Shown here: one piece after another, positions 8,060 through 64,000 of the stretch
Position numbering within the stretch: the first letter of the stretch is position 1
Layout of the letters: the number at the start of each line of letters is the position of its first letter
DNA from: Dipteris shenzhenensis
Lineage: Eukaryota
Strand: one strand, 5' to 3'
Length of the DNA stretch: 64,000 bases
Assembly: GCA_047967505.1 (NCBI GenBank)
Contig: CM106538.1
Made by a program: the position numbers and the translations under genes
The notes under the pieces: model-generated
Told to the model about the DNA's origin: nothing
Seen by the model: the letters and a program-made list of their open reading frames with translations, nothing else
Database searches by the model: none

Positions 8060-10450
8060 TGAGAACAACTATACGCAACATGCATATGGACTACCTTTGA
8101 GGGCGGTACACTTGTATGCTTGCTGAGTTGGCTTCTCAATCGCCAAGTGCACAAAGAATACAACTGAGCCACTAGATTGGAGATGCAATGAATTCCAAGT
8201 GAAGGACCTCCTTGGAGTGAACCAAGAAGCTGAGCTGCTCGCGAAACAGGAAGCCAATGGAAAATGAGGGGTCACACTTTTTTGTTAGAGCTTTGAACTT
8301 GTGCTGGCTGCCCGATTGGAAGAAGGATAGATTGGTGTCAGCTAGTCTAATTCTGATTGATCATTGGATAGAGAACTGCTCTTCTAGTGCTTGTGGGTAT
8401 TGAGGTGGTAGAAACCTCTCAGCAATGGTTGTCTTTGTCATACTTTTACCTCTATAAAGGTGCATTGATACAAGGAGACATGGTTCAGTGGCTTTTTATC
8501 GACAACTTGGAAGTAGCTATTAAATTGATTAAGTACCTAGTGAGAAGATAGTAAAAGGGGGGGCAATGGCGACTCAATTAACGTCAATAGTGGGAATGGG
8601 AGCAATGACGACAGACACCACAACTCTAAAAGAAGGTTAGGTAGTTACCTTGGGCCACAACAAGAAGAACAAAGAAAACCTTTCGAAAGGCAAGGCAATA
8701 GGAGGTACTTTTTTACTTGAGGCATTCTAGCTTGAGGATCAATGCTGTGGTGACCAACGAGATTGAGCAATAGGCCCAAGGAGAGGCTTTTATTATACAT
8801 AAAGAGAGGGTTCTAGATACAAGACTCATATGGAGGAAGCAAGCTTGTCTATTCCTTGGCAACACTTCAGATTTTGTTTGGTCCACCATATTTCAAGATT
8901 CGAAGTTGGAATCCTTGCAGCTGGATCCTTTAGGATGTTTTAGGGCTTGGTGGAAAACCTCTTACTGTAGTAGATCGCTTAAGCGAATCTGTCATATGGT
9001 TCCTTGCAAGTTGATAGTGACTTCTGACAAGATAGCTAGGCTTTTCATTGTTTGTATCCAAGTTGTGGACCTCTGCGTTCCCTAGTGTTGCACAGATTCA
9101 AAATTAACTAGTCAGTTTTGGAGGGCATTGTTTGACGCCTTTCTCACCAAGCCGGATTTCTGTAGTTGATTCCATCTCGAATCTGATGGATAAAGAGAGG
9201 GCTCTAGATACAGGACTCATAGGGAGGAAGTTTTTGGATCCTATGGGTAGATTAATGGCCATGCGGCACAATGGACAGCACAATGGCCAAGCAAGCTTGT
9301 CTATTCCTTGGCAACACTTCAGATTCTGTTTGATCCACAATATTCCAAGTTGGAATCCTTGCAGCTGGATCCTTTAGGAGGTTTTAGGGCTTGGTGGAAA
9401 ACGCTTACTGTAGTAGATTGCTTAAGCGAATCTGTCATGTGGTTCCTTGCAATTTGATAGTGACATCTGATGAGATAGCTAAGGCTTTTCATCCATTGTT
9501 TGTATCCAAGTTGTGGACCTCTGCGTTCCCTAGTGTTGCACAGATTCAAAATTAACTAGTGAGTTTTGGAGGGCATTGCTTGACGCCTTTCGCACCAAGC
9601 CGAATTTCAGTAGTTGATTCCATCTCGAATCTGATGGACAAAGAGAGATGCTCAGCTTGCATCTGATGTATTGAAGCTAGCGAGCATTAGAGTAGTTTGG
9701 AGGGGTATCTGTCTTTGCTTCAAGGCAGTTTGATTTATTTTTTCCTTATGCAATTGGAAGAAACCCTTTATAGAAAAAGTCTATCAAGCATAGAAGATAC
9801 TAGAGAATTATGAGTAGGTGATTTGAGTCTGTTAAACATAGTATTGTCCAAGGTGCAAGAGCCACTGCAAGTTAATAAGCATATGATATGATACATGCAG
9901 CTATTCAAAAGGAGATTGAATGTACCTGTGAGTCATTAAACAAGGCTATGCACATGCATCCAGTTTTCCATGGGGAATAGCTGAAGATGTACACTGGAGA
10001 GGAGGTGAACGATGCTGAACCGCTGGAGCTTATACATGAGGGAGAGGCGTTGAGGTCTGAACAGATTCTTTGCATGACATTAATTACAGACCGACCTGCA
10101 GTTTTCAACGATACAAGCTCACAAAGCCATTTGGTCTGGCGAGAGATTTTCGATGTCTGTCCCAACCTCCTTAGCATGTACAAGGAGACCATGCATTTGA
10201 CCTGATCCTTTTTAGAATTATGCAGAAGGAGATGTCACATGGACATGCCTGCTACCTACCTTTTTGTAAATGCATAGTAGTCTAGGAAAGAAATCACAGT
10301 GGAAGAGGCCTTAGCCTAGAGCATGTAGTTGCATAGAAGATCTTTGAGAGCATGGAAGGCTCCCAAGTTTCCATTTGTGTCAAAGTGAGTTCTTGCTCTC
10401 CCGATCACAATGCAGCAGTCGGCATGTTGATTAGATATGGGAGCCAAGAG
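8060..10450 (+). mobile_element. Degenerate Ty3/Gypsy remnant (integrase-core fragments, internally duplicated) in the MUB 5' intron
   Basis: Integrase-like fragments LTVVDRLS and DSKLTSQFWRALFDA occur in two copies (~8840-9200 and ~9290-9650); the segment at ~8080-8350 recurs at ~11370-11880. Confidence 0.55.
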
Positions 10451-13328: not shown

Positions 13329-15420
13329 AATTGAAAAATGGCTAATGGAAAAGCATCGGAAACAGTGCAATTGAGTGCAGAACTTATAAAATGGACAAAT
13401 GAATACACACGAAGATGCCTAGTAGGGCTACTCAATGATGCAATGCTCAATGGTTTTCCACCCGAATGGCAAGAGAATTGGATAAAGCCACTTTACAAAG
13501 GAGGGAACCGCAATCAACTTACCAATTATAGAACCATAATGGTGAGCTCCACAATGGCAAAACTGTTTAGCACAATAATTGAGTCAGAACTCAGCCTATG
13601 GGCAGAGTTGCATAAAAAAAGGGCCATTGGACAAGCAGGCTTTAGGAAAGCTCACAGCACTGTGGATCATCTGGTCACTATACGAGTTTTAATGGAGGAG
13701 AGTAGGCTACAAGGCAAAACCCTTTTTTGTTGCTTTATAGATTTTAAGAAAGCATTCGATATGGTGCCCAGAAACAGTTTATGGGAGAGAATGTTGCAGT
13801 TGGAAGTACCACACCAATTCAGGATAGCAGTTTTCAGGCTATATGAGAAGGTAACATGCCAACTCAAGGGAAAAAATGGGCTATCAACAGCGTTCTACAG
13901 CAATATGGGGGTGAAACAGGGATGCCCACTGTCACCTACATTGTTTGGCTTATGCATTGATAGACTAGAAGAATCGGTCGAGGAGACACTACAAGAAAAG
14001 AGCATAGACAGCCCTCAAATCTTGGGATATGCTGTATTACTGCTGTTGTATGCAGATGATGTTGTTTTCTTCTCACACACAGCAGAAAAGGTGGGATGGA
14101 TGATGCATGTACTTCATAAATTTTGTGTGGAAAGTGGCTTTGCTGTTAATGTCAACAAAACAAAGATGATGATAGTCAAAACAGTACAGCCAGCAAACAC
14201 ACCAAATATTATGTACAATGGCCAGCAAATTGAAAGAGTGCAAACTTTCAAATACCTAGGGGTGGATATACCAGCAAATCACAGGTGGAGTGATTGTGTT
14301 CAAAGAAGGATTGATGCAGGGTGGGGTAAGTACTATCAGTTTGAGAATGATTGCAGGAATAGTGACACTATAAGATGGGGTATCAGACAAATCCTTTTTG
14401 ATGCATATGTTGTACAGATAGTGTTATATGGGGTGGAAGTTTGGGGAGGAAGTATCTCAGCATCAAAATGGGATGATATTGAGAAGATGCAAAAATCATT
14501 CATCAGAAGGCACTTGGGAATCAAAATTACCACACCCTACTCAATCATGCTTCTAGAGACTGGCACCAAACCAATTGAAATAAGGGCATTGGAAAGAGTT
14601 TTTAAATACATCAAGAAGGTCAAGGCCATGGACATACACAGACTACCAAGAAAGGCATGGAAAGCAAGTAGAAGACTTCAAAAAACAAATAAGAGTAAGA
14701 TACTATCCTCAGGATGGTGGCTAGATATTCATGGCTGGTTCCAAAGGTGGGAAGTTGCCTCATATTTAGATAGCCCCTCAGACAAAATGGATGAGGAGGC
14801 ACTGCAAAAAGCGCTCCTTGAAGCATTGCATCACAAATGGCAATCAGCTAAGAAAAGAACTAAGTTTGAATACTATTGCCAACATATTAGTCCCAGCTAT
14901 TGGAGCACATATGCTCAAGCAAAGGACAATGTTCAAAGATACATAAGCATGCCCATACCTATTAATGTCAGGCGTAATATTGCAAGTATGCGTACCCGTT
15001 CTCATATGCTAGAGGTGGAGAGAGGAGCCTGGGGAGATACTTCAAGAGATCAATGAATTTGCCAAATGCGTGATTTGCAGGACGTGGAGACAGAAGCACA
15101 TGTTTTATTGACATGCCCACAGTATGCCCACATAAGGAAAGATTTTCAGAATGTCGTAGAGAGGCACTCAAATCTTGTGAGCCTACTCACGCATGTACAT
15201 CCTCCTATCTTGGGCACATATATTGGTAGGATTCTTAAGCACAGAGAACAATGCACGATGTCGTAGGCTATAAAGCAGTGATACTGTGTTACTTTATCAC
15301 CCCTTCTCTTTGGGGGACAGAGACTTCCTTTTTTGTATCTTCTCTGATCAGATGAGGTCCCATGGGTCGTTTTTCGGCCCCCAGAGGACGATAATACAAC
15401 ATTCTATTCTATTCTATTCT
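13329..15420 (+). mobile_element. 5'-truncated non-LTR retrotransposon (RTE/RTEX-like) in MUB intron 2, with near-intact RT ORF 13338-15266
   Basis: RT motifs QAGFR, FIDFKKAFD, GVKQGCPLSPTLF, LLYADD, FKYLG; one in-frame TGA at 15054 before a C-terminal C..VETEAHVLLTCP motif; (ATTCT)n 3' tail at ~15400-15420; both flanks are (CT)n. Confidence 0.9.
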
Positions 15421-30869: not shown

Positions 30870-32310
30870 CTATGTTCTCAGGTAGAGGTAATCCCAAAGA
30901 ATTCATTGCTTTGTTTGAGTACAAATGGTTAGGTGATATCTCAAGGTAGGAGGAAAATTATTTGAACATATTCCCACAAGCTCTCATAGGAGAACCGTTT
31001 GATTAGTACTACAAAATGGATGTGGAAACACAAAGCTCATGGCCCATGCTATGACAATATTTGTAGTCACTCATAGACTAATAATGGATCTCCATCAGAG
31101 TGTGTCATCCACAAATTTTGGCAATCACGAAAGATTAGACAAAGGGATTCAAAAACCGCATTTCCAAGGGTGGTTCAAAAGAATTGGGATATAGTGATAG
31201 ATTACTTCTACAAGCTTAAAAATACTATCATAGAGAGAAATCTGTCACTTATAGAGCACCATTTATTCAAAAGTTTTGTCAAAGGCTTGCATGAAGAAAT
31301 TAAGAGCAATTGGATTACTGTAACTATAAAACTATATCAAAAGTATATGATGCCGCAATAATGATTGAAGAATCAATTGAGAAGGATCGGAAAAGGATTG
31401 AAGCAATATTAGAAAGGCAAGTTTCCAAATTGAATAATGACACAAGTGAAGGCACTCTTAACTCCACTGATGCACATAGTGTAAAGCTTATAGAATCATC
31501 AAACACACTAGGCAATAATGAGGGTAATTTGGCAATGGTTTCAAGAGAAACCACTTTCACTAACATGTGCACAATGGAAAGTCAAATAACAAGGAAAAAG
31601 GGAAAAAAGAAGAAAGGAGCTAAGAGAGGTAATGTGAATGTGCAATCAATTAATGACCCAAAACCAACCCTTACAAAAGTAGATTGCACAAAGAGGGAAG
31701 AAATCCAAAGCATTACACTAGAAGGTTGTAACACATGTGTCTTGGGTGATGCAAGCCCAAAGAGTGGCATTCACGAACATCTCAGTTACTTGGGCTCTTC
31801 AAGTACGACACTTCTGCATGAAAAGGATGTGCAAAGCATCCTCTGTGATAAATCTCAAATCTAGGTGCCCACCATGGAAGAAGAATTACATGTTGGCCAT
31901 GTACCAAAGGATCCCCCAAAGACAACTACAAAGGTACAACAGTCGGATCCAGTCTCTTATCAAAACCCTCTAAGACCTATTTTTGATACATTCAAGAGGG
32001 AAGAACAAGAGAGTATAGGCCCACCACAAGATCTGAAACAACTCAAGCTATTTTGCAAGAGCATGTTCAACTAATGCACGAATTCCAAAATACTTGGCAT
32101 CAACAGTTGACATAGCTCAAGCAACAGCTACAACAAGAGCAGAATCAAAAGAATAAACTTAGTTCATGCCTGGTAGAGCAAAATAATGAGATAAAGGACT
32201 TAAAAGAAGAGCTCAATAAACTCAAACAAGTGCTAGCGATTGATACTAACCCATGTCAAAGATCTACACAGTTTGACAGAATTCAAAAGGGAGAGTCAAG
32301 AATATCAAGA
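30870..32310 (+). pseudogene. Retrotransposon gag-like ORF remnant without adjacent pol
   Basis: MFSGRGNPKEFIALFE...IFPQALIGEPFD*YY...SW, then FVKGLHEEIK...ISKVYDAAIMIEE (retrotransposon gag-like), then a low-complexity/coiled-coil tail. Confidence 0.55.
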
Positions 32311-32698: not shown

Positions 32699-35594
32699 AT
32701 GGCACCATTCGAGGATGTCTCCAACAAGTACCAGGTTCACTTAGAGTTGGAGGTTGAATATGCAAGCACACATAGTCTAGGATTGAGGAGATCTTCCAAA
32801 ATCCATAGTCTTCGTTTGCAAGGAAATAAGCATCTCAACCTTTGAGTAGAAGGATCCTTGTATCCTTTAGATCCTGCCGACGAAAAGAGCCCTCCTTTCC
32901 ATACAATGCATGAACTAGTTTGGTTTGTTGGAAATGGACGTGCGGGGTTGCTTGGTTATTGCAATCGGTTAAACAATGCTCATTCAATGGCTATGCAAGC
33001 AAGTGAGATGTGCAGAGCCCAAGCAGAGATGCTAGCACATTTAGGAAATAGCACCATTGTTGCAATGCATAACTCTATGCAGGATCTTCAAAGGAAGAAC
33101 CGAGATCTTCATGATAAAGCCAAAGCATTGGACTTGGAGCGACATAAATTAGAAGAGTCGCTCTGTAAGCTAGCTGAGTCCAAAAAAGGCTTGGAAAGAT
33201 CTATATACAATCAAGTTCGATGAGCCGTAGAGAAGGAACGAGAGAAGGCAGAAGAACGAGTGCAAAAGATGAAAGAAACACCTTTGGGATTGAAGGAGAG
33301 GAAAAGAAGGTACTTACATAACATCGATGCATTGGCACCCACTGGTGGTGCTAGAAAGAGGAGAGTCCGGGCTACAAGGTTGGTTATCAAATGTTCCAAT
33401 GAGATTACACTCTTTTGTGCTACACTATTTGTGACTAAGTTTTCATTGTGTTCTTCTTTAGGAACTTCATGGAAGATGTGATGGGAAGAACGGACGGGGA
33501 TGATATTAACTGTTCATATGCTCTAGCAAGTTTATTGAAGTCAAGCGATGTCATTGGGATACTAAGGGACCCAAGACACAAGCGCCTACGTGTGCAAGTT
33601 GCTGAAGAGGTGATGAAGGACTTCAAGGATATTGTGGATGCAAAGGAGATGCTTGTAGCTTGTGATGAGCTTGTGATATTGCCGGTGTAAGTCGTGAAGC
33701 TTACACATCTATTTTCAAAAATTTCAAGTCTACTATTTTGGGAAAGTATAAGAAGTCTACAGTGCCCCTACCCACACCTTGGTCTAAGAGACGTTCACGG
33801 CGAGAAACAAACCAATGTGCAAGAGAAATGCTTGGAGGGTACCATTGCGTAAGGGGCACAATGACTTGGAAGAGTAAAAAGAAATCTGGCTTGCAAACCT
33901 TTGAGATGAATGCTTTCAACAATGTCTACTTAGATGTTGAGAAACTGCAACAAGCAATGGTCAAATTCTATGGCATGAAAGAAGATGGTAAGAGGAAATC
34001 CATTATAGCATTGCACTTTACTAGTTCATTTCCTATATCATGTTTATCCTAACAATTTTTCTCTTTTGTTGTACAGATTGCAATGGAAAGCTCATATTTG
34101 TCATCAAAATGGATGAAGCTCAATTGGTGAAAGAGCACAAGTTAGAGAGAGTCAGCATCTGCATTATGAATAAAGCCTTAGCCTTTGTTCAAGGGGACGA
34201 AGAAGTAGAGCAAGATTTCTCAGTGCAATTAGAGAAAGATATATGGTGGCTTGCAGCATTTGAGACTCCAAAAGAGTGCCATGAGACATTGAAGTGTGTT
34301 CTAGATAGAATAGGAATCCCATCGATGATCTGAAGACAAGAGGAAGGGCAAACATTGATAGTCGATGGCCATGGAACCTTTCAAGTTGAATGGCATCTTG
34401 CTGGTGATTTGAAAACCCTCAACTTCTTGCATGGTTGTGATACAGGGGAAAATGCAATGAACACATGCCTTTATTGCGTGTGTTCGCAATGTAAGCAAAA
34501 GGCTGGCTTACAATGGGAGAATGGCATTCTATCTTGTAGCCAAACGCAAGCTCCTAATCACGACAAGAAGGATCCAAAGTGGGATCCCATCTTGCCCATC
34601 CCACTTGAGAGAGTACACATATGTACTTTACATGCAAAACTGCGCGTACTTGATAAGTTGTTGTATTTGCATCTTGTTTATGCTTGGAATTTAATTCCGC
34701 AAGAAGTATCCACACGGTGCATTGCAAAAGCTGAGGAGTTGCTGTTAGAGATGGGATTTCGTGGAGGACATGTCAAACTTAAGGAGGATAAGAAAATGTC
34801 TGGGGCACAAACATACACTATCTCAAAGTAGTTTGGGTTGGGAATACTGGAAGCATTGTGTGAATGCACGACCAATAAGGCTTCTCATCCTCAAGTAGCA
34901 ACTTTGAGAGCTAAAGTATGGACAAAGGTAGATGCATTGATAAAATTGCTTCGCCAAGTTCAAATCGATGAGATGTATTATGAAAGGTTTAGGATGGCTG
35001 TGAAAGAGTTTATGCAATTAATGGTGAAAGCATGGGGGGAGTCGCACATTATGCATTACATGGTAATCTTGGCACCGTCGTAATATTTAGCACTTGCTTT
35101 ATAAACAGTTTTTGTTGCTGAAATGATTCTCATCATGTTTGCAGCATATTCTCTATGCACACGGACCATGGTTTGTACAAAATTGGGGTCCTTTATCCAT
35201 TTGGAATACACAAGGCATGGAGAAGTCACACTATAGAGCCAAGGCAACCTACTTCAAGAAATCAAGGCATGGTGGTGGTGTCACTCGTAGCAATGCATTG
35301 CATGAGATGTTCAACTAGTTTTTTAGATGTTTACTAGGAAGGACTTTGAAGTCTGAAAAGGCAAAGGCATCAGAACTTGCAAAAGCAATTCAAATTGTAT
35401 CAAAGAATAGAAGACATAGTGCTTGGAAAGCATCCATAGGGAGTCGAGGAGTCGCACGTTGGTTGCAAGCTAGAGTGAGAGAAGGGAGTAGATGGGTCCA
35501 ACCACCAACAGAAGCTGTATACAAATATGAAATAAATATATTGCTTATTTTGACCACAATTTGTGTACTCTCTTTAATATCTTGCTTATTTTGA
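32699..35594 (+). pseudogene. RAG1/Transib-like DDE transposase, 4 exons (introns 33379-33461, 33988-34076, 35063-35144), inactivated
   Basis: Spliced product has IKMD (D 34112), KECHETL (cf. RAG1 ESDHETL), AGDLK (D 34406), CLYC (34466-34477), ICTLHAKLR, HYM|HILYAHGP (HxxxxH) and GPLSIWNTQGMEKSH (E 35220; cf. RAG1 GSIGAWASEGNESGN). All three introns are GT..AG with consistent phase. Several in-frame stops and a frameshift near 33685. Exact 3' end uncertain. Confidence 0.85.
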
Positions 35595-35629
35595 CTACAA
35601 TTTTTATACTTACACGACGTTGGGAAAAG

Positions 35630-35835
35630 TGGGGACATGGTGAAGGAGGGGGGAGAGAAGGAAGGGGCATGGGGCGGGGCAAGGGGAGGGGTGGAGTGGT
35701 AGCAAGGGTGGGGGGAGGGGGGGTATGGGGAAGGGTGATGGGTGTGGGCAGGGCAAGTAGGGGGAGGGCAATGGGGGGGGGAGGGCGACAAGGGTGGGGG
35801 GGGTTGGAGGGGTTAGGGTGGAGGAAAGGGGCACG
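35630..35835 (+). repeat. G-run-rich spacer (G-quadruplex-prone) between transposase and H3 gene
   Basis: Many G3-G8 runs separated by short loops. Confidence 0.7.
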
Positions 35836-35838
35836 ATG

Positions 35839-35910
35839 AAACCCTAAATGTAATTAAAAGGGATGTCAAAACATGATGTGCCTATATAAAACGTTTGAAA
35901 AAAACCCTAA
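35839..35910 (+). promoter_or_regulatory. Core promoter of the H3-like gene: TATA box flanked by two telo-boxes
   Basis: AAACCCTA at 35839 and 35902; cctatataaa at 35881-35890; ATG at 35924. Confidence 0.65.
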
Positions 35911-35923
35911 CTCTCATTATTCA

Positions 35924-36945
35924 ATGGCAAGAGTGAAGAACACTGCTAGACCCACTGGACGCCGCCTCCACCCTTCCTCCTCTAGCTCCACCACCTCCAT
36001 GGCATTTGTGCACACGAACCTACTCGAGTCCAATGGTGCCTCCCCCGACTCTCGTGAGTTGTCCCCCAACTCTCGTGAGGTCTCCCAGGACTCTCGTGAG
36101 CCCTCCCCCAACTCTCTTGAGTATGAGCCTTCCCCTCAGCCTTCCCCCCAGCCTTCCCCTCAACCTTCCCCTCAGCATGAGCCCCAAGAGCATGAGCCTT
36201 CCCCTCAGCCTTTCCCCTAGCCTTCCCCTCAGCGTCAGCCTTCCCCCCAGCCTTCCCCTCAGCACCAGCCTTCCCCTCAACCTCAACCTCAGCCTGACCC
36301 TCAACCTTCCCCTCAACCTTCCCCTTGGCCTTCCTGTCCCCATGAGAGCCCTCTCCCAATCGAACAAAATGTGTTCAATAACCTCCCGAACATAGAGAGG
36401 CTTCCTGAGGGCCAATAAACTGCCAGGAAGAGAACCATCTTCCCTCTCCCGGTTATACAGTCCATTGCAAAGATGATCCATGTGCCCATGAGGACGGTAA
36501 AGCAGACGCTGAGGAAGCCCCATCCCAAAGAAAGTCAAAGCTCAAGACGTCAGCGAGAGGAGGACTCGGAGGAGGATCAATGCAGACAAGAGCAGCAAAA
36601 GAAGTTTATGGTAGACAAGAGGTCATGGGCTCATGTTTGGGTACCTATAAGGACCGCACCAAGAGTTAGGAAGCCGTACAGAGCAAAGCTAGGAGCGCGG
36701 GCCCTGAGGGAGATCAGGCAAATGCAGAAGACCATTGACAACTTGATCCTGCGTTCCAACGTGTGGTATGGGAGATAGCACAGGGGTACAAGGATGACAT
36801 GCGATTCAGCACAGGAGCTATGAGGGCACTCCAGGAGGCTACGGAGCAAGTGACCACCGCTCTATTCGAGGATGCCAACTTGTGTGCCATCCATGCAAAG
36901 CGCGTCATGGTCATGGACATGACTGCAGTAACCAACCATTTTAAT
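35924..36945 (+). pseudogene. Histone H3 variant with long Pro/Ser/Gln-rich N-terminal tail
   Basis: N-terminus MARVKNTAR; (PSPQ)n repeats; histone fold [26 protein letters not shown] / [52 protein letters not shown]; in-frame stops at 36218 and 36416, and a small frameshifting deletion at ~36750. Confidence 0.9.
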
Positions 36946-37344
36946 GTAAGTTTTGAATTCTATCAAATTCTGAAGGAATTTCACTGTCGCGCAGAAGAGA
37001 AAAGTATTCGGCACGTCGCCAGGACCCCATTCTATGCCCAAATTTGTGCCGTGGCAGGTTTTGGGCTTTCTGGGGTCCTGGCAATGGTGAAATTCCTTTA
37101 GGATTTGACAGAAATGAACTTTTGATACCCAAAATTGGTGAAAATGATGCTAAATTGGCTAAAAATGTATTAAATTAACACAATTAAAATGATGGAGAAA
37201 AACTATCATCAAAGACTTAAACAAAACACAATGGAATTCATGACGACCAATGACAACTTAAAACAAATAATAAAGACATGTAGTCATGTATCCATTAAAA
37301 TATCCATTTAAATATATGTTTATATATACAAAAGGCCTCACAGG

Positions 37345-38744
37345 CTATCTTTCTTCTTGGCTAGTTCGAGTACATTGAGAATAGGGGTCTTTGAATCTAG
37401 TCGCAACAGCACTAACATCCTCCTCTCCTACTGCCAAAGACATAGCCATTGCCGTCAATGCACTGCCATGAATGTTCGATCCAAAAGCATTGATAGCAGC
37501 TAGGCGGTGTACCAAAATGACTTTGTCGGTATTCTGAGTAATGTTGGAGTATCTGATAGCGCACGACAAAGCCTTGCACTTCAGCAGCTTCGAAGGACCT
37601 CGAGGAGAAAATTTGTTGTGAAAGATCACGATATGCTCTGCGACTTTGCCAAGGTAATGGGCCAAAGAATGATCTCGCCCAAATGCGTTGTGAACATTAC
37701 CCCGTCAAGATGAGAAATCATCAAGCTCAAATGCATCTTGCAACAATTCAATAAACATTAGAAGACTGACAAAACAAATTATACTAAAAGAACATCAAAA
37801 TAAAAAATATTGTTCGAACTTACTACTACAACGTCGTCGGCTTCTATCCCTTCCTCATTTGCAATGTTGATGGAACCAGGTGCTGTGTGATGTTCCATTT
37901 GGGAGGTGGACGCTTTCTCCTAACCTGTGTTGGAGGTGGAAGCTTTTGCATGAGAGGGTTGTGCATTGTATACGGACATGTCTGCATCCCTCATTGAAAC
38001 CAGCATCGTCAAGAGAAAGTCTTCCATTGTATGGTCTTCGGTACCTAAAACCCTAGGATCTTTGACACTTGTGTCAACATCGAACCCCGATAGGACTTCG
38101 AGTGCCTCATCCTCTTGTAGTCCAAAAAGAATCTCTATGTCATGGAGGAATATGTACTCTTCTCCATCAATGATGAGGAGGGACAAGGACCATAATTCTG
38201 AGTCTGAATCAGTGGTCTCCGATGCAAATTCTTGCTTACTGGGGGCTCTTCAAGTAGGCTCAATGCTTGAGCTGCTTCCATCTCCTCTATTGGATCATCA
38301 AGACTCTCTTCCATGTAGATGTCCGAGTCTAGTCTAGTGACCAGATCAGCAGTTCTACTGGAGGGGGTGCTAGACGATGAGGCTTCTTCCTCTAAATTTC
38401 CTTCTTGCGTTTAGGATGTCTTGAACTTCGACTGTCCTAAACCCTTCGTCTATAAGGTTGTCACAAAAGCGAGCCAAGCACTTTACAAACTTGGGTTCCT
38501 CTACGAACAGATACTTTATGTAATCTATGGGAACCCATCTCTTTGAAGAGTGGTCAAGTGTATAGGCAAAATTTGAGAAATTATCTTGCATGTAAAGGAT
38601 GAGATCTAAGAAATCATCCTTGGCTCGCATATATGTGCCTAGGACATCTAAAGTCCTATCAAACACTAAAAATAGCTCTTCCTCATGATCTGCAAATGCA
38701 GTTCATGAGATGAAGTCATGGAACGCAGTTCTAGTTGAATCCAT
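37345..38744 (-). pseudogene. Unknown-function gene remnant within the transposase cluster
   Basis: ATG at 38744 in frame with ORF 38370-38666; successive minus-strand coding-like ORFs 37920-38186 and 37345-37665; putative intron ~37737-37823; TATA-like 38845-38854 and telo-box 38857-38864 upstream. Confidence 0.55.
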
Positions 38745-42145: not shown

Positions 42146-43385
42146 CAATTCTCCCCTAATGTGCATGAGCTATTTGCTATGCTGGCATTTGCTGTGTGGA
42201 GGTAGACATTAGTGGAGGTCGATGCAGAGGCATCGACTGGAGACATTGTTGAGGTCGCTCGGGAGAGCTAAGTCATTGCAGATGAAGGTCAGTCAGCCAG
42301 TGGTTGCCACGGTCAGCTCATCGGAGGCGGTGCATTGGCTGGAGCATGGGCTACCATCGCTATAGAGTCATGGAGGTTTAGCACTGTTGATGGCCCATCC
42401 TGAGCTTCGTTGCACCTTGTCTGTAGGTGGAGACACCTATCCTTTATTGTGTGAAGCCCGTTGGGAGCGATTGTGCATGCTCGTTGGTTAATGGAGCTGC
42501 TCACTGATCGACGGAGGATTCTTTGGAGTGCTACAAATGATGATGCTATAGAGACTACTAGTTGGAGAAGGCGTCTCTCTGTCAATGTGTAGCAATTCAT
42601 TTGTGTAGCAACCGAACTGCTCATTTGTGTCAATCGTCTAATCCTTATCTCTATTGTTGCAGTGTAAGCTGTTTTGTGTATGGAGCCTTTGAAGCCTTTG
42701 AATGAGGCTTTGCTCTATGTAGAGGCTGCAGCCTTTAACACTATTCGAGGCTTGCCTTTGTTGGAGATGCTTGGAGCATATTTTGAGTCTCCATCTCTCA
42801 AAACTCTCCCAAATCTCTCAAAGCATCTCTCTCTTTCTCATAAGAACAGATCTCTCAAGAAGAATGCCTCACTATTTCTCTTTCAACAATCGGCAAAGTA
42901 ATGAATGGAAGGAATACCTCTCTTTCGCTCATGAAAGAAATAATTCTCAATGTATGAAATCAATGACAAAAATTCTCTCTCTCATGAAATGAATGGAAAT
43001 GTCTCTCTCAATGGAAGTGAACTTGCATGAAGAACACTCAAGAGGAACTCTCGATCTCACAATCTCTCAATCACTCTCGCAAGGATCTCAATGCCTCAGC
43101 AGAAGGCAAGGGAGCTCTGATACCATGACAAAATATGAAGAGGGGAGAGGAGAAGAGTGGAGATGAGGAGAGAGGGCACAGCTAGAGAGCACACCACAAA
43201 TGATTAATTGTACACTAGATATAGTTGAAAAAATAGAATATGTAAAAACCCATTTAGGGTTAGGGTTAGGGGATCTAACCCTTTCCTTTATAGCACTCTA
43301 TTGGGTTAGTGCTATGCACATATGATCACATGATGGTGCTATGCACACATGATCACATGATGTTGAGCGTGAACTCTCAACAACA
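42146..43385 (-). mobile_element. Non-autonomous LTR-type unit: LTR (43385-43126), PBS (43125-43114), non-coding internal region, PPT (42157-42148)
   Basis: Minus strand TG...CA LTR followed by TGGTATCAGAGC (tRNA-iMet PBS); ends AGGGGAGAAT-TG. Confidence 0.7.
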
Positions 43386-44826: not shown

Positions 44827-46173
44827 TGTTGTGGATTCATCTCAACATCATGTGCTATCATATGTGCATAGCACTAACACAGAGTGCTAAAAGGCACAAG
44901 GGTTGGAAAACGTAACCCTATAGGGATTTGTACATTTTCATTATTTTCAACTAAATCTAGTGTATAGTTAGTCATTTGTGGTGTGCTCTCTAGCTGTGCC
45001 CTCTCTCCTCATCCCCACTCTTCTCCTCATCTCCTCATCCTCTCATCTCATCATCTCCACTCTTCTCCTTCTCCTCTATCCATATTTGTTCATGGTATTA
45101 AAGCACGTGGTCGTTCCTTCCGCTGAGGCGCCATCGGTGAGAGATCGAGAGGTCCTTCTTGATTATTCCATTCACTTTCATTGAGTGAAATTTTCGTTCA
45201 TCTCTTTTGAGAGTTTGTGAGAGATCTAGTGATTGAGAGAGAGATTTGTGAGTTCTTTTTTCGTTCATTTCCCTTATGAGAATTCATTGAGAGGCCTTTG
45301 AGTATTCATTTCTGTCATGTCAGAGAGAGAGGCTTGTGAGAATTTTTTGAGTTCATTGAGAGAAAGGCATTGAAATCCATCTTCTTTTCTTTGAGAGCAT
45401 TCTGTGTCTGAGAGAGAATAGAGAGGTGTTCTAAGAGAGAGGCTTTCTTGGGGGAAGAGAGAGTGCTTTAGTCTTTCATTGAAATCCATCTTATTTCCTT
45501 TCAAATTGAGAGAATTCTGTGTCTGAGAGAGAATAGAGAGGTGTTCTAAGAGAGACGCTTTCTTGGGGGAAGAGAGAGCGCTTTAGTCTTTCATCAACTC
45601 CAAAATCTTTCAACACAGTAGCAGCCTCAAATGAACTCACAGCAAAGAGCTTAGGCTATGGGTGGTTGAGCCACAGTTCTACCTTCATCCTACCTAACAA
45701 TAGATACACCATGCACAACAATGCCGAACGACTTCTTGCCGAAGGTTTCAACACAATGTGCAAGCCAAGCCTCCAATTACAAGGCATAGACCACAACATA
45801 GCCACCTCAACAATGCTTCAACCTAAGCCTACAACCCGGTGACCTCCACACTCTATCTACAACCATCCAAGGCAACAAGCTATAGCATGCCAACATGCCA
45901 TAATAGTAGTGCGATGACTCCTACAACAACTTCTAGCTTCAGCAACCATGACAAGAAATCAATGCAATGAATGGCAGCTATGCTATCCAAATGCCCTGAC
46001 ACAATGACCTACTACCTTAATGCTCCAATGACCTACCGGCTCAAGCATACGACTATGACATAACACTACAAAGAAGCTCAAAACAACTAGACAAGGCTAT
46101 CTTCACCGAGCATAGCACTAGGTTGGGTTAATACCGAGCACCTTTTTTGAGTTAGCCTTGGGTGAGGGAATTG
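44827..46173 (+). mobile_element. Second copy of the same non-autonomous LTR-type unit: LTR 44827-45092, PBS 45093-45104, PPT ~46159-46171
   Basis: LTR is the inverted homologue of 43126-43385; PBS tggtattaaagc; internal region related to the first copy; ends GAGGGAAT-TG. Confidence 0.7.
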
Positions 46174-61119: not shown

Positions 61120-64000
61120 TGTACGGCCAGGGAACTGGCCTGGTGGCCACCAGTCACGGCTCCCTGTGCCCACTGGTCCGGGCAGTCTGCCCTATTTTTT
61201 CTTTTCGTTTCTTCATCACTCATGGAAGGAAATGGATTATGACAACCACCCGGAGGTGGTTGACTGTTTACATTCTATACAAGAGCCTTTCTCTTTCCCT
61301 TATTGAAGGCTACGAGGACAGCTATTTCAGCCAGTTTAGTGAGGTCTCTAAGAGTGGTTGGGTTGAACATTTTAACCTCATACGTCACGTTTAGGGTTTA
61401 CGGATGAAAGATATATCTTTCTTCTATCTTCCACATTGTTTCCTGGTAACTCTAAAGAGAGTTTTCCAAACCTGGCTGTAAATTCAGCAATACTCTTAGT
61501 ATCAAATTGCTTGAACCTTTCCCAATGGAAGGTCAAGTTCCTTGGTGGCTTTCAGTTGTTCCACAAACTTAGCTCAATCAAGGTAGGCTCTCTTCCTATT
61601 TGTAACAATGACCACCACGTTAAAGCATCATTTTGTAGATGCAATGTAGCAAGGGAAGCTTCTCTTGATCGGTCTTTCCTTCATTGGGCGAATTAAAGCT
61701 GAAAATGGCAAATACAATCAAGGATTTTATGAGCCTTCCTTTCTTCATCATATTCAGGGAATTCAATCTCTCTTGTGATTGAAAGTTGATTCTTTTTGGA
61801 GGAGTGCTCAGCTCTCCCTCTCCAAAATTGAGAACCCTCTTTGTTCCTAGCTTTGTCATTATGAACTGTTCTATCATATTACTAAGTTGAGAAACCAGCT
61901 TCTCAATGGGAGACCCTTCCTCCTCTTCGTATTTGGATTATCTATGTGTGTGGAATTTTGAGCTAAAGGTTTAAACTCATTACCTTGCTATTGGGTGGAC
62001 TCATTTCTCCCCTCCTTTCCAAAAGAGAACTCCTATCAAGAGGTTCTTGTTGGAAAGAGGGTAACTCTATTCGTGGATTATCATAATCAAGGTGTGTTTA
62101 AGTGTTGGGATAAAGGCCAATGGCCTAGTATATACCCCTTTGTACCATACATACATAATAAGAGCTTACCTTGATCTGGGTGAGTTAGCACCCACAATTT
62201 CGGTGTTCTCCTTTTCTTTGTTGCTCTCCGATAAGACTTCCTCTCCATCAACTGGTATCAGAGCTTGGTTGAGCGAAGCCAACAAGGAGACTGTAGCATT
62301 GTGGTGTTGCTGTGTCAAGAGCCCGAACTTGTTGCGTGGAGTCTCCTACTGCTCGTGGGTTGCCCCTGGGAGCTGTATTTTGACATATACTAGCTCGTTT
62401 TTACTGTTTCAGCCATATATATCAGGTTGCCTCGATTGTTCCAGCAATCTATTGCCTTGTTTGAGCAGGGGAAAAGAAATATTATCCATCTATGGTCAAA
62501 AACGACTTGCTGCTCTGCAATTCCAGCCACTGGAAGTTGCTTTTTTGGGACCTGAAAGCAAAAACGTCTTTTGCTTGTGGCGGACTCCAGTTGATCAAAG
62601 GCAGCTGGTACATTCAGATTTTAGTTGGGTTTATGCCTTCAAGTTGATGCGTATTAAGCCAAAGGTTGGCTGAAAGTGATTGCTTACAATTGATGCATTT
62701 TGAGCCTTTGTTTAGCTGAGAAAGTAAGCATAAGTGAATAGTGTTTTTCTGAAGCTGTCTTGTATCCCAGGAAGGGATTATTTTTTGATGGCTTCGGCAT
62801 CAGAGAATGCATTGTTTAACATTGAGAAGTTGGATGGCACAAACTTCTCCTATTGGAAGGAGCAAATCTACAATGTTCTGGTGCAGAAGAAGCAAGTAAA
62901 GCCTATAAAATGCAAAGGCATAAAGCCAGAGGATTGGAAAGATGATGAAGAGTGCAAGGAATTAGATAAGCTTGCACGCTCTACGATCATGCTCACACTT
63001 TAAAAATCGGTATATTTCAATGTCAAAGATACTGCAGGTGGTACCTATGGTATGTGGACAAAGTTGCATGATCTTTATGAGAAGCAGAGTGCCGCTTGTC
63101 AAGTTTATTGGCTGAAGAAACTCATAGATCTTCGCATGGAAGAAGGGACTTCCATGTCTAGCCATTTAAATGAGTTAACACAATTTTCAGTCAACTTTCA
63201 GCTCAGAAAATTGCCTTTGATGACTCAGTTAAGGCAATGTTCTTATTGGTCACCCTTGCTGAAAGTTGGGACACTTTTAGGACTGCTATAAGCAATTCAG
63301 CCCGTGCAGGAGGCCTTACAAGTAATGATGTTGAGAGTAGCCTTCTCACTGAGGAGGTAAATAGAAAGAACACTACTGGAACTAAAAGTTCAAGTGCTCT
63401 CAATGTGAGAGGGAGGTCATATTTCAGAGGGAAATACCACGACAGAAATACAAGCAAGTCTAGAAGCAAATCTAGAGGAAAATCCCATGCCAAAAAGGAT
63501 TTGGAATGCTTCTATTGTGGGAAGAAAGGCCATTTCAAAAAGGATTGCTACAAATGGAAGAACAATAAAGGCAAAGGCAAAGGCAAAGCTAATGTGCAGC
63601 CCAAGAAGGAAGAGAAATCCACGGTCAATATAGAGGAAGTGAATGCCATAAGTAATAATACTGATGAGGGTGACATTCTTTATGCCTCTATGTTTGAGCA
63701 TGCTTTTCTTGTGACTAGTGATGATGCATTGTCACAGAATTGGATACTAGACTCAGGGGCATCTTTCCATGTCACTCCACATAGGGAGTGGTTTACCATT
63801 TATGATGCAGGAAGGAAAGGAACCGTGAGACTTGGAAATGATTATCCATGTGACATTGTTGGAGTGGGAGATATTCACTTGTCTCTTCCTAATGGTTCCA
63901 CATTTGTACTCAAGAAATTAGCAAAGGGTCACTTGTGATTGCTAGAGGTTTCAAGCATGGAACGTTGTACTCAATGCATGTGTTAGGCGTAAGAGATAAT
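61120..64000 (+). mobile_element. Ty1/Copia LTR retrotransposon 5' part: LTR ~61120-62250, PBS 62253-62264, gag-protease from 62788
   Basis: TGGTATCAGAGC PBS after ...CATCA; IEKLDGTNFSYWK; Zn knuckle CFYCGKKGHFKKDC; protease WILDSGASFH; stop at 63001 and frameshifts. LTR start tentative. Confidence 0.9.

Follow-up and report, generated by a model that had tools for sequence, protein, structure and literature searches.

Why would a transposable element carry a gene for a histone? H3 is among the most conserved of eukaryotic proteins, and mobile elements are usually the targets of silencing that is based on the H3 tail, not makers of H3. The question is raised by positions 35924 to 36945 of a 64-kb stretch of Dipteris shenzhenensis DNA (contig CM106538.1; the whole stretch is here called the window, and coordinates are positions in it unless a locus name precedes them), where a broken H3-like gene lies between the remnants of a transposase gene and those of another gene, open reading frame 2 (ORF2). 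This sequence is likely to be the decayed accessory H3-variant gene of a DNA transposon with a RAG1/Transib-like transposase, and the order of the element's genes is transposase (+), H3-like gene (+) and ORF2 (−). The reading is carried by the H3 ancestry of the sequence, its position between two genes of the element, H3-like ORFs at the same position in relatives, and purifying selection in one pair of these. All three genes are broken in the window and, consequently, nothing is functional there now. The copy is a fossil, whose value is that it keeps all three genes of the element on one piece of DNA, and intact members of the family exist. Selection that maintains an H3 variant in a family of transposons would, if confirmed, amount to a new kind of chromatin interaction between element and host, and through the RAG1/Transib-like fold a relative of the V(D)J recombinase would be tied to histone biology in a way that does not involve RAG2.

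A decayed H3-like gene with a long tail

By sequence comparison, the H3 ancestry of the window's fold is beyond doubt. The Pfam family Histone (PF00125) matches it at E 3.8e-16 with 59.9 bits, the cut-off being 26.4, and in a phmmer search of PDB sequences, query residues 5-60 are colinear with residues 66-121 of H3 over 56 residues without a gap (E 5.8e-17), with many solved structures among the matches. As an earlier reading made from the letters alone (hereafter, the sequence-only reading) had stated, the gap-free alignment leaves loop 1 at its canonical length, and the FQR and RF residues are retained. CenH3 is marked by a longer loop 1, by an FQR that lacks its conserved Gln, and by RW where H3 has RF. 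Thus, the view that this is not a CenH3 holds for the window copy, in which loop 1 has no insertion and FQR is kept. In an H3 tree, it also lies outside the CenH3-like rows, although it is like CenH3/CENP-A in having a divergent N-terminal tail on an H3 fold.

The gene starts at ATG 35924, which is preceded by TATATAAAA and two AAACCCTAA-type motifs, and its first codons (35924-35950) encode MARVKNTAR, which is like residues 1-8 of H3. From this methionine to the start of helix αN at 36662 there are 246 codons, in agreement with the tail of ~250 amino acids (aa) proposed earlier. The SRE(L/V/P)S and PSPQ repeats described in this tail were located in the tail frame as tandem arrays: four copies of a 21-nucleotide (nt) repeat at 36040-36122 encode SRE(L/V/P)S, and 18.7 copies of 12-nt PSPQ-type repeats with 66% matches span 36126-36334. 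Both periods are multiples of three.

The reading frame of the gene is not uninterrupted. Two in-frame stops of the tail, TAG 36218-36220 and TAA 36416-36418, had been reported and are both seen. However, tail and fold had been taken to share one frame, and a frameshift at ~36750 was overlooked: the tail frame terminates at TAG 36776-36778, and α1-L1-α2 is read in a different frame from ~36751. Since fold and tail are in different frames, the frameshift lies in the αN-α1 joint. Further downstream, the sequence after RVMVMD departs from canonical H3, and neither α3 nor the C-terminus (PKDIQLARRIRGERA in canonical H3) was found in the three forward frames of 36880-38200, that is, in ~1.3 kb downstream. 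In sum, two stops, a frameshift and the loss of α3 add up to four lesions, which make 35924-36945 a pseudogene. It is the sole H3-like sequence within the window. The inverted repeat that follows the gene (Table 1) lies at the position of the missing α3 and may represent the insertion of a small hairpin element.

Contigs of one other public sequencing run (X1) match 35850-36442 at 85-97% as well as a small part of 36858-36941, and one of them covers 35850-36005, in part the promoter-like stretch, with five differences and one gap. There are none on 36480-36857, which is no evidence of absence. Of public runs with shared words, one was listed (X1, share 0.05, apparently of DNA) and none of RNA. 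These matches fit a repeated family and are silent on expression.

Three motifs that resemble the N-terminal tail of H3 had been proposed. When ARTKQTARK was scored against the 127,924 six-frame 12-mers of the window, the sites at 35927 and 36491 were two of the three best, with a score of 28 each. The latter corresponds to RTVKQTLRK (36491-36517), directly 3′ of ATG 36488. The top site, with a score of 29, is at 8666 in A-rich sequence, and we take it to be a chance match. By contrast, the third proposed motif, GQ*TARK at 36410-36430, is weak, as it is not among the 15 best sites of the same scan. Compared with ARTKQTARKS, the first window motif (ARVKNTARP) keeps A1, R2, K4, T6, A7 and R8 and has lost K9 and S10.

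Table 1. Positions of the element's genes, gene modules and adjoining features in the window
Feature	Coordinates	Strand	Remarks
Decayed transposase gene	32726-35501	+	~900 aa if intact; at least five in-frame stops and at least three frame changes; located by tblastn
G-rich repetitive spacer	35600-35830		Between transposase and H3-like gene; Tandem Repeats Finder rows 35663-35814; units such as GGGGTGGGG/AGGGCAA
Promoter-like stretch (putative)	35839-35911	+	AAACCCTAAA 35839-35848, TATATAAAA 35883-35891, AAACCCTAAC 35902-35911; 12-85 nt 5′ of ATG; read from sequence
Decayed H3-like gene	35924-36945	+	Between transposase and ORF2 remnants
Distal tail module	35924-36217	+	MARVKNTAR, Ser-rich stretch, SRE(L/V/P)S repeats, PSPQ repeats; stops at TAG 36218-36220
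Tail continuation, same frame	36221-36487	+	PSPQ/PQPQ repeats; TAA 36416-36418; weak Q*TARK 36413-36430
Proximal module	36488-36661	+	Met and RTVKQTLRK (36488-36517), then acidic/basic linker REEDSEEDQ...
H3 helix αN	36662-36750	+	Frameshift site next, ~36749-36753
Histone fold α1-L1-α2	36751-36918	+	Shifted frame; Pfam and PDB matches as in the text
Degenerate C-terminal stretch	36919-36945	+	MTAVTNHFN, in place of α3
Small inverted repeat	36953-36984 / 37087-37118		32-nt arms, 84% complementary, 102 nt apart; directly 3′ of H3-like gene
Decayed second element gene, ORF2	39912-37345	-	Convergent with transposase; broken ORFs

The transposase and the place of the H3-like gene

The series of forward-strand ORFs upstream of the H3-like gene matches a family of proteins of ~500-900 aa from public assemblies (best E 5.3e-82), for which the search retained 24 proteins at E ≤ 0.001 among 1938 candidates. 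By tblastn, 32726-35501 is colinear with residues 4-760 of one of these relatives (P0129) and residues 761-890 of another (P0130). No relative of the transposase was found in viral contigs. Pfam gave nothing meaningful on 23 flanking ORFs and, on seven transposase relatives, weak coiled-coil matches and no RAG1 family. Similarly, the profile of the transposase alignment (A2) matched no RAG1 or Transib chain, nor any transposase, among PDB sequences at E ≤ 10.

The predicted fold points to RAG1, RAGL and Transib. Since the copy in the window is broken, the AlphaFold2 (AF2) model used here represents its relative P0130, and the mean predicted local distance difference test (pLDDT) score of this model is 67. 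With this model, ranks 1-47 of a Foldseek search are exclusively RAG1, BbRAGL of amphioxus and HzTransib of Helicoverpa (best E 2.3e-8). VIA-align superposes residues 243-765 of the model on residues 459-945 of RAG1 with Z 12.6, a root-mean-square deviation of 6.7 Å and 380 aligned positions. Its top 35 rows are RAG1, RAGL or Transib, HzTransib reaching Z 10.8, and the following row has Z 6.6.

The motifs of the transposase are in keeping with this fold. In A2, the columns of D411 (within KLDE), D508 (within WHLAGDLK), H586 and H591 show no variation, and those of C528 and C531 almost none (≥90%). The alignment contains a CxxC and an H-x-C-T-x-H motif (Hx4H), and D, D, CxxC and Hx4H follow each other in the same order as in Transib, RAGL and RAG1. 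Further along there is a conserved GMEKSH, whose E was assigned by eye; CxxC and Hx4H, putative zinc ligands, stand between the second D of the putative catalytic D, D, E set and this residue, and the equivalence of the D, D and E residues to those of RAG1 is inferred. As a lead only, an Atlas search gave at rank 24 a cluster with RAG1 domains on 24-26% of its members. By modelled fold and motif order, we call the transposase RAG1/Transib-like, not a proven member of that superfamily. In four related loci (L011, L012, L019 and L024), the tblastn core match is split at the same residue (~66 of the core) with gaps of 62-73 nt, which resembles a short intron at a conserved position.

When metagenome contigs were scanned with the transposase alignment, 32 loci encoding the transposase were obtained. 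In four of them (L001, L002, L014 and L030), an ORF with an H3 fold follows the transposase on the same strand. Its start codon is ~130-190 nt beyond the transposase match in L001, L002 and L014 (Pfam Histone E 5.6e-26, 7.3e-34 and 3.1e-18, respectively), and in L030 the H3 match starts immediately after a truncated transposase. In addition, an ORF with MARTKQTARK at its start lies 290 nt past the transposase in L021, where the contig ends within it. Eighteen loci are uninformative, as 17 have less than 400 nt past the transposase match and, in the 1312 nt of L008, neither gene was recognised. The window alone shows transposase, H3-like gene and ORF2 together, with the H3-like gene in the middle. 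Mainly for this reason we accept that the gene is element-borne, as the sequence-only reading had put it; that relatives of the transposase carry H3-like ORFs at the same position agrees with this.

It is highly improbable that a host H3-variant or CenH3 pseudogene came to lie beside transposon debris by chance. Unrelated repeats abound in the window, among them a long interspersed nuclear element (LINE) reverse transcriptase ORF and one that is copia-like, which makes neighbours by chance frequent. Furthermore, the ends of the element, namely terminal inverted repeats and a target-site duplication, were not found by inverted-repeat scans of the window and six loci or by a scan for CACNGTG plus 5-bp flanks. 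Nevertheless, the gene is flanked on both sides by genes of one and the same element, which directly adjoin each other in nine related loci, the order of transposase and then H3 recurs in four to five independent loci, and the length of loop 1 and FQR speak against CenH3.

Types, tails and selection of the element-linked H3s

The H3-like proteins linked to this transposase family are of more than one type. Those of L001 and L002 have short tails (MVRIKECANR... and MGRVKQCAKR...), a loop 1 that is ~15 residues longer than in H3, FSR/FAR for FQR, RW for RF, a complete α3 and a shared C-terminal extension (NN.DAF.LDPNM), traits that resemble CenH3. Their identity to a canonical H3 by tblastn is 45-49%. 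Eight distinct full-length, intact 168-aa sequences of the L002 type, 88-93% identical, are present. By contrast, L014 has a loop 1 of canonical length and QGY, as in the window, and is one open frame from MARTKQTAKK through a tail of ~170 residues before αN, which contains a second Met-GRVKGKAQR, into the fold. A layout of Met-xR.K followed by an acidic Ser/Asp/Glu stretch is common to the proximal module of the window, L001, L002 and L014. In L001 (3077-3238, MVRRKITPRR) and L002 (2713-2856, MVRVKKTPTR), there is an extra forward-strand ORF 3′ of the H3-like gene, which once more resembles the H3 N-terminus at its start, is Ser/Pro-rich further on and is cut by the contig end.

Public assemblies also contain a large family of H3 proteins of ~386 aa (P0003-P0111, alignment A1), with MARTKQTARKD at the start, a conserved tail of ~290 residues before αN, a second Met-GRGKK and an H3 fold. 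Most of the 117 matches to the window's fold belong to this family, which comprises many near-identical variants, and many of these differ by changes from R to C, H or W. QRVV, DY/GY, EAT and DAN are common to this family and the window fold, whereas its tail cannot be aligned with that of the window.

Across the element-linked H3s, the extreme N-terminus is what is kept. The R and K of xR.K are present in all six N-terminal motifs (window motifs 1 and 3, L001, L002, L014 and L021), none has Ser at the position of S10, where P, L or D stands, and the K27 region is replaced. When the 386-aa family is included, the residue at the S10 position is P, L, D or N, and R2 and K4 are always kept. In L014, L021 and a large number of members of the 386-aa family, the residue after K9 is Asp. 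Thus, of the tail motifs whose conservation among copies was in question, the N-terminal xR.K motif stood, whereas the rest of the tails is unalignable.

A Met precedes the internal motif in the window, and the same is seen in L014 (SMGRVKG) and in the 386-aa family (AMGRGKK). Because of this, the long tail probably stems from a duplicated 5′ end that took the gene's start codon with it. The same methionine allows a different account, in which the real histone begins at ATG 36488 (MRTVKQTLRK...) with a tail of ~70 residues as in L001 and L002, and 35924-36487 belongs to another, separate ORF upstream, or to a 5′ module that was duplicated and is in frame by chance. We regard this as a possibility, though the less probable one. 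Both tail stops are upstream of 36488, no frame is closed in the CCT-rich repeats, which makes an open frame there weak evidence, and L001 and L002 do have a separate Ser/Pro-rich ORF that starts with MVR(R/V)K. However, L014 is uninterrupted from MARTKQTAKK through its second Met-motif into the fold, and so are many sequences of the 386-aa family. In the window, moreover, the TATA-like box precedes 35924 and not 36488, and the repeat periods of 21 and 12 nt are divisible by three.

With regard to selection, the ratio of nonsynonymous to synonymous substitution rates (dN/dS) between the H3 genes of L001 and L002 is 0.21 overall, 0.18 in the fold and 0.32 in the tail, with a dS of 1.24. The dN of H3 is 0.263 and that of the transposase core 0.216 (the dS of the core is saturated), and amino-acid identity is 65% for H3 and 69% for the transposase core. 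In the spacer between the two genes, 59 of 114 positions are identical. The dN/dS comparison proposed earlier could thus be made for these relatives, as one pair, and not for the window's copy.

These values bear on whether the H3-like gene is a working part of the element or a passenger. Pack-type elements capture host genes, and a host H3 or H3-variant gene may likewise have been taken up as neutral, decaying cargo. The window copy is broken in four ways, and H3 is absent from nine loci, including L007, the nearest transposase relative with downstream sequence. In addition, transposase clades carry different types of H3 (loop 1 is long in L001 and L002 and canonical in L014 and the window), which fits separate captures. 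There is also a precedent, as far as the portion of PMC6710886 drawn on here goes, in Pseudocercospora fijiensis, where hAT elements amplified captured H3 to hundreds of copies. Against such a capture without function, dN/dS is 0.21, H3 and the transposase core have diverged equally at the amino-acid level, with a spacer that is nearly random, and eight distinct 168-aa sequences are intact. Moreover, the element-linked H3s are far from canonical (45-49% identity in L001 and L002, at most 70% in the window fold) and keep a constant position and orientation, 130-390 nt after the transposase. On balance, we consider neutral cargo unlikely: at the level of sequence, one pair and one cluster argue against it without settling the matter.

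Several observations weigh against an accessory gene of the element. H3 was seen in only four (plus one) of the 32 loci, and in nine (L005, L007, L011, L012, L013, L015, L019, L024 and L026) ORF2 is convergent directly after the transposase and H3 is absent. In a transposase tree (41 rows, quick search, with support from the SH-like approximate likelihood ratio test, SH-aLRT), the window transposase is in a clade with L014, L021 and L030 (SH-aLRT 95), L001 and L002 are in another (99) and most loci without H3 are in a third (99). L007, as the nearest relative of the window transposase with downstream sequence, is without H3, and the presence of H3 needs at least two changes on this tree. A quick H3 tree of 47 rows, of the kind that the sequence-only reading had suggested, places the window H3 outside the canonical cluster and the CenH3-like rows, on an end branch of 1.49 in an unresolved polytomy, and does not join it to the other element-linked H3s. 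The closest protein matches of the window fold have 67% identity in the "longer" length range and 70%, over the matched 54-55 residues, in the "near" one, and the window H3-like sequence may have a host parent gene. The tails of different element-linked H3s are unalignable beyond the first ~10 residues and αN. For instance, the window tail aligns with those of P0008, L014 and L021 only at αN or the first 9 residues, and its 119-aa pre-fold segment gave two weak αN matches only against 1.84 billion representatives. The selection estimate is that of one pair with near-saturated dS, in which L001 has one in-frame stop. To these is added the failure to find element ends in the scans given above.

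A possible role, known systems and the rest of the window

Although the window copy can no longer act, an accessory H3 variant might do so in intact relatives. There, the H3-like protein would be made from its own TATA promoter, would pair with H4 and would enter nucleosomes. The variant would present the extreme N-terminus of H3 (xR.K, with R2 and K4) without the K9-S10 and K27 contexts, and this combination would alter how the chromatin of the element is viewed by the silencing and reading machinery. A histone that pairs with H4 and lacks the K9, S10 and K27 signals could blunt silencing or tag chromatin for the transposase. Taken jointly, these steps (own promoter, pairing with H4, entry into nucleosomes and changed silencing or reading of element chromatin) form a tentative proposal for the intact relatives, which we hold to be doubtful as a whole. 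The idea that the predicted tail motifs act as decoys, which was raised in the sequence-only reading, is possible; marking of element chromatin, and SP repeats as candidate kinase sites, were put forward there too.

RAG2 couples RAG1 to H3K4me3. A more far-reaching and rather improbable scenario is that a RAG1/Transib-like transposon lineage carries its own H3 variants as a working part, some of them CenH3-like and others long-tailed with an H3K4-type N-terminus and without the K9-S10 and K27 contexts, and that this histone flags nucleosomes at the donor or the target for the transposase, or protects the element against H3K9/K27-based silencing. If true, the coupling by RAG2 would have a counterpart of the type "bring your own histone".

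Among known systems, sequences captured by fungal hAT elements are the nearest precedent. Manning et al. 2013 reportedly dealt with H3-like sequences transduplicated by hAT elements in Dothideomycete fungi. According to the part of Dhillon et al. 2019 (PMC6710886) used here, hAT elements of these fungi carry a transduplicated coding sequence of canonical H3, and all copies in P. fijiensis were made inactive through repeat-induced point mutation. As far as this account goes, both cases have an H3-derived sequence that lies inside a cut-and-paste DNA transposon and is amplified with it. They differ in that the transposase has a RAG1/Transib-like fold here and is of the hAT type there, and in that the element-linked H3s described here are strongly diverged, in that their tails are new or their loop 1 is long, and keep a constant position after the transposase, with a dN/dS of 0.21 in one pair.

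The element is like Transib, RAGL and RAG1 in the core fold of its transposase and, going by the section of PMC4411706 considered, like the RAG1L-RAG2L pair in having a second gene that is convergent with the transposase. At the level of sequence, the PDB profile search and Pfam gave no match to RAG1 or Transib, and CACNGTG termini and a 5-bp duplication were not found by the window scan. With DNA-virus histones (Talbert et al. 2022, PMC9145170, as seen in part of that text), it shares that a mobile entity encodes its own core-histone homologue. There, the genes are in viral genomes, often as full sets or doublets, whereas here a single H3-like gene is in a cellular cut-and-paste transposon. 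In the same portion of that text, "transposon" and "transposable" occur once each, and neither mention is about histone genes. The word "histone" occurs 0 times in Kapitonov & Koonin 2015 (PMC4411706) and in 10.1101/2021.09.26.461848. More generally, no account of a histone gene, be it H3 or another, in a Transib, Chapaev or RAG-like transposon was found in the literature searched, with Repbase Reports and supplements outside the search, so that a prior description is possible.

The other gene of the element, ORF2, is identified through its C-terminal domain at 37728-37417 (−), which matches the ORF2 of L012, L024 and L005 (best E 1.7e-9). Near its N-terminus, the motifs C..H...C and ..DI..LF.L.ED.AL were seen by eye. 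It matches no Pfam family. Its AF2 model is of low confidence (mean pLDDT 51.8) and mostly helical, and has no fold match at Z ≥ 5 among 48,161 chains. Unlike in RAG2L, no propeller is seen in this model, though it is too weak to exclude one. Short palindromic repeat clusters upstream of ORF2 and near the contig ends of three loci (L012:5051-5291, L005:5009-5257 and L007:4985-5104) are possible subterminal repeats.

With regard to the ends in the window itself, a candidate terminus pair at 31570 and 43941 agrees at 4/5 flank positions and at 13/25 positions of the arms, which is about what chance gives for 16 candidate pairs, and the motif TTTGACAGAAWT is not above chance in the window (24 matches, 24.95 expected).

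Elsewhere, the window is a repeat-rich eukaryotic sequence in which no tRNA gene or Rfam family was found. It contains an open 573-aa ORF for a LINE-type reverse transcriptase at 13335-15056 and a 254-aa ORF like a copia-type gag/protease at 63174-63938. There are also two long inverted-repeat pairs, 952-1026 with 43126-43200 (75 nt, 91%) and 43147-43267 with 44908-45028 (121 nt, 88%), which share an arm region at 43.1 kb and probably belong to another repeat family.

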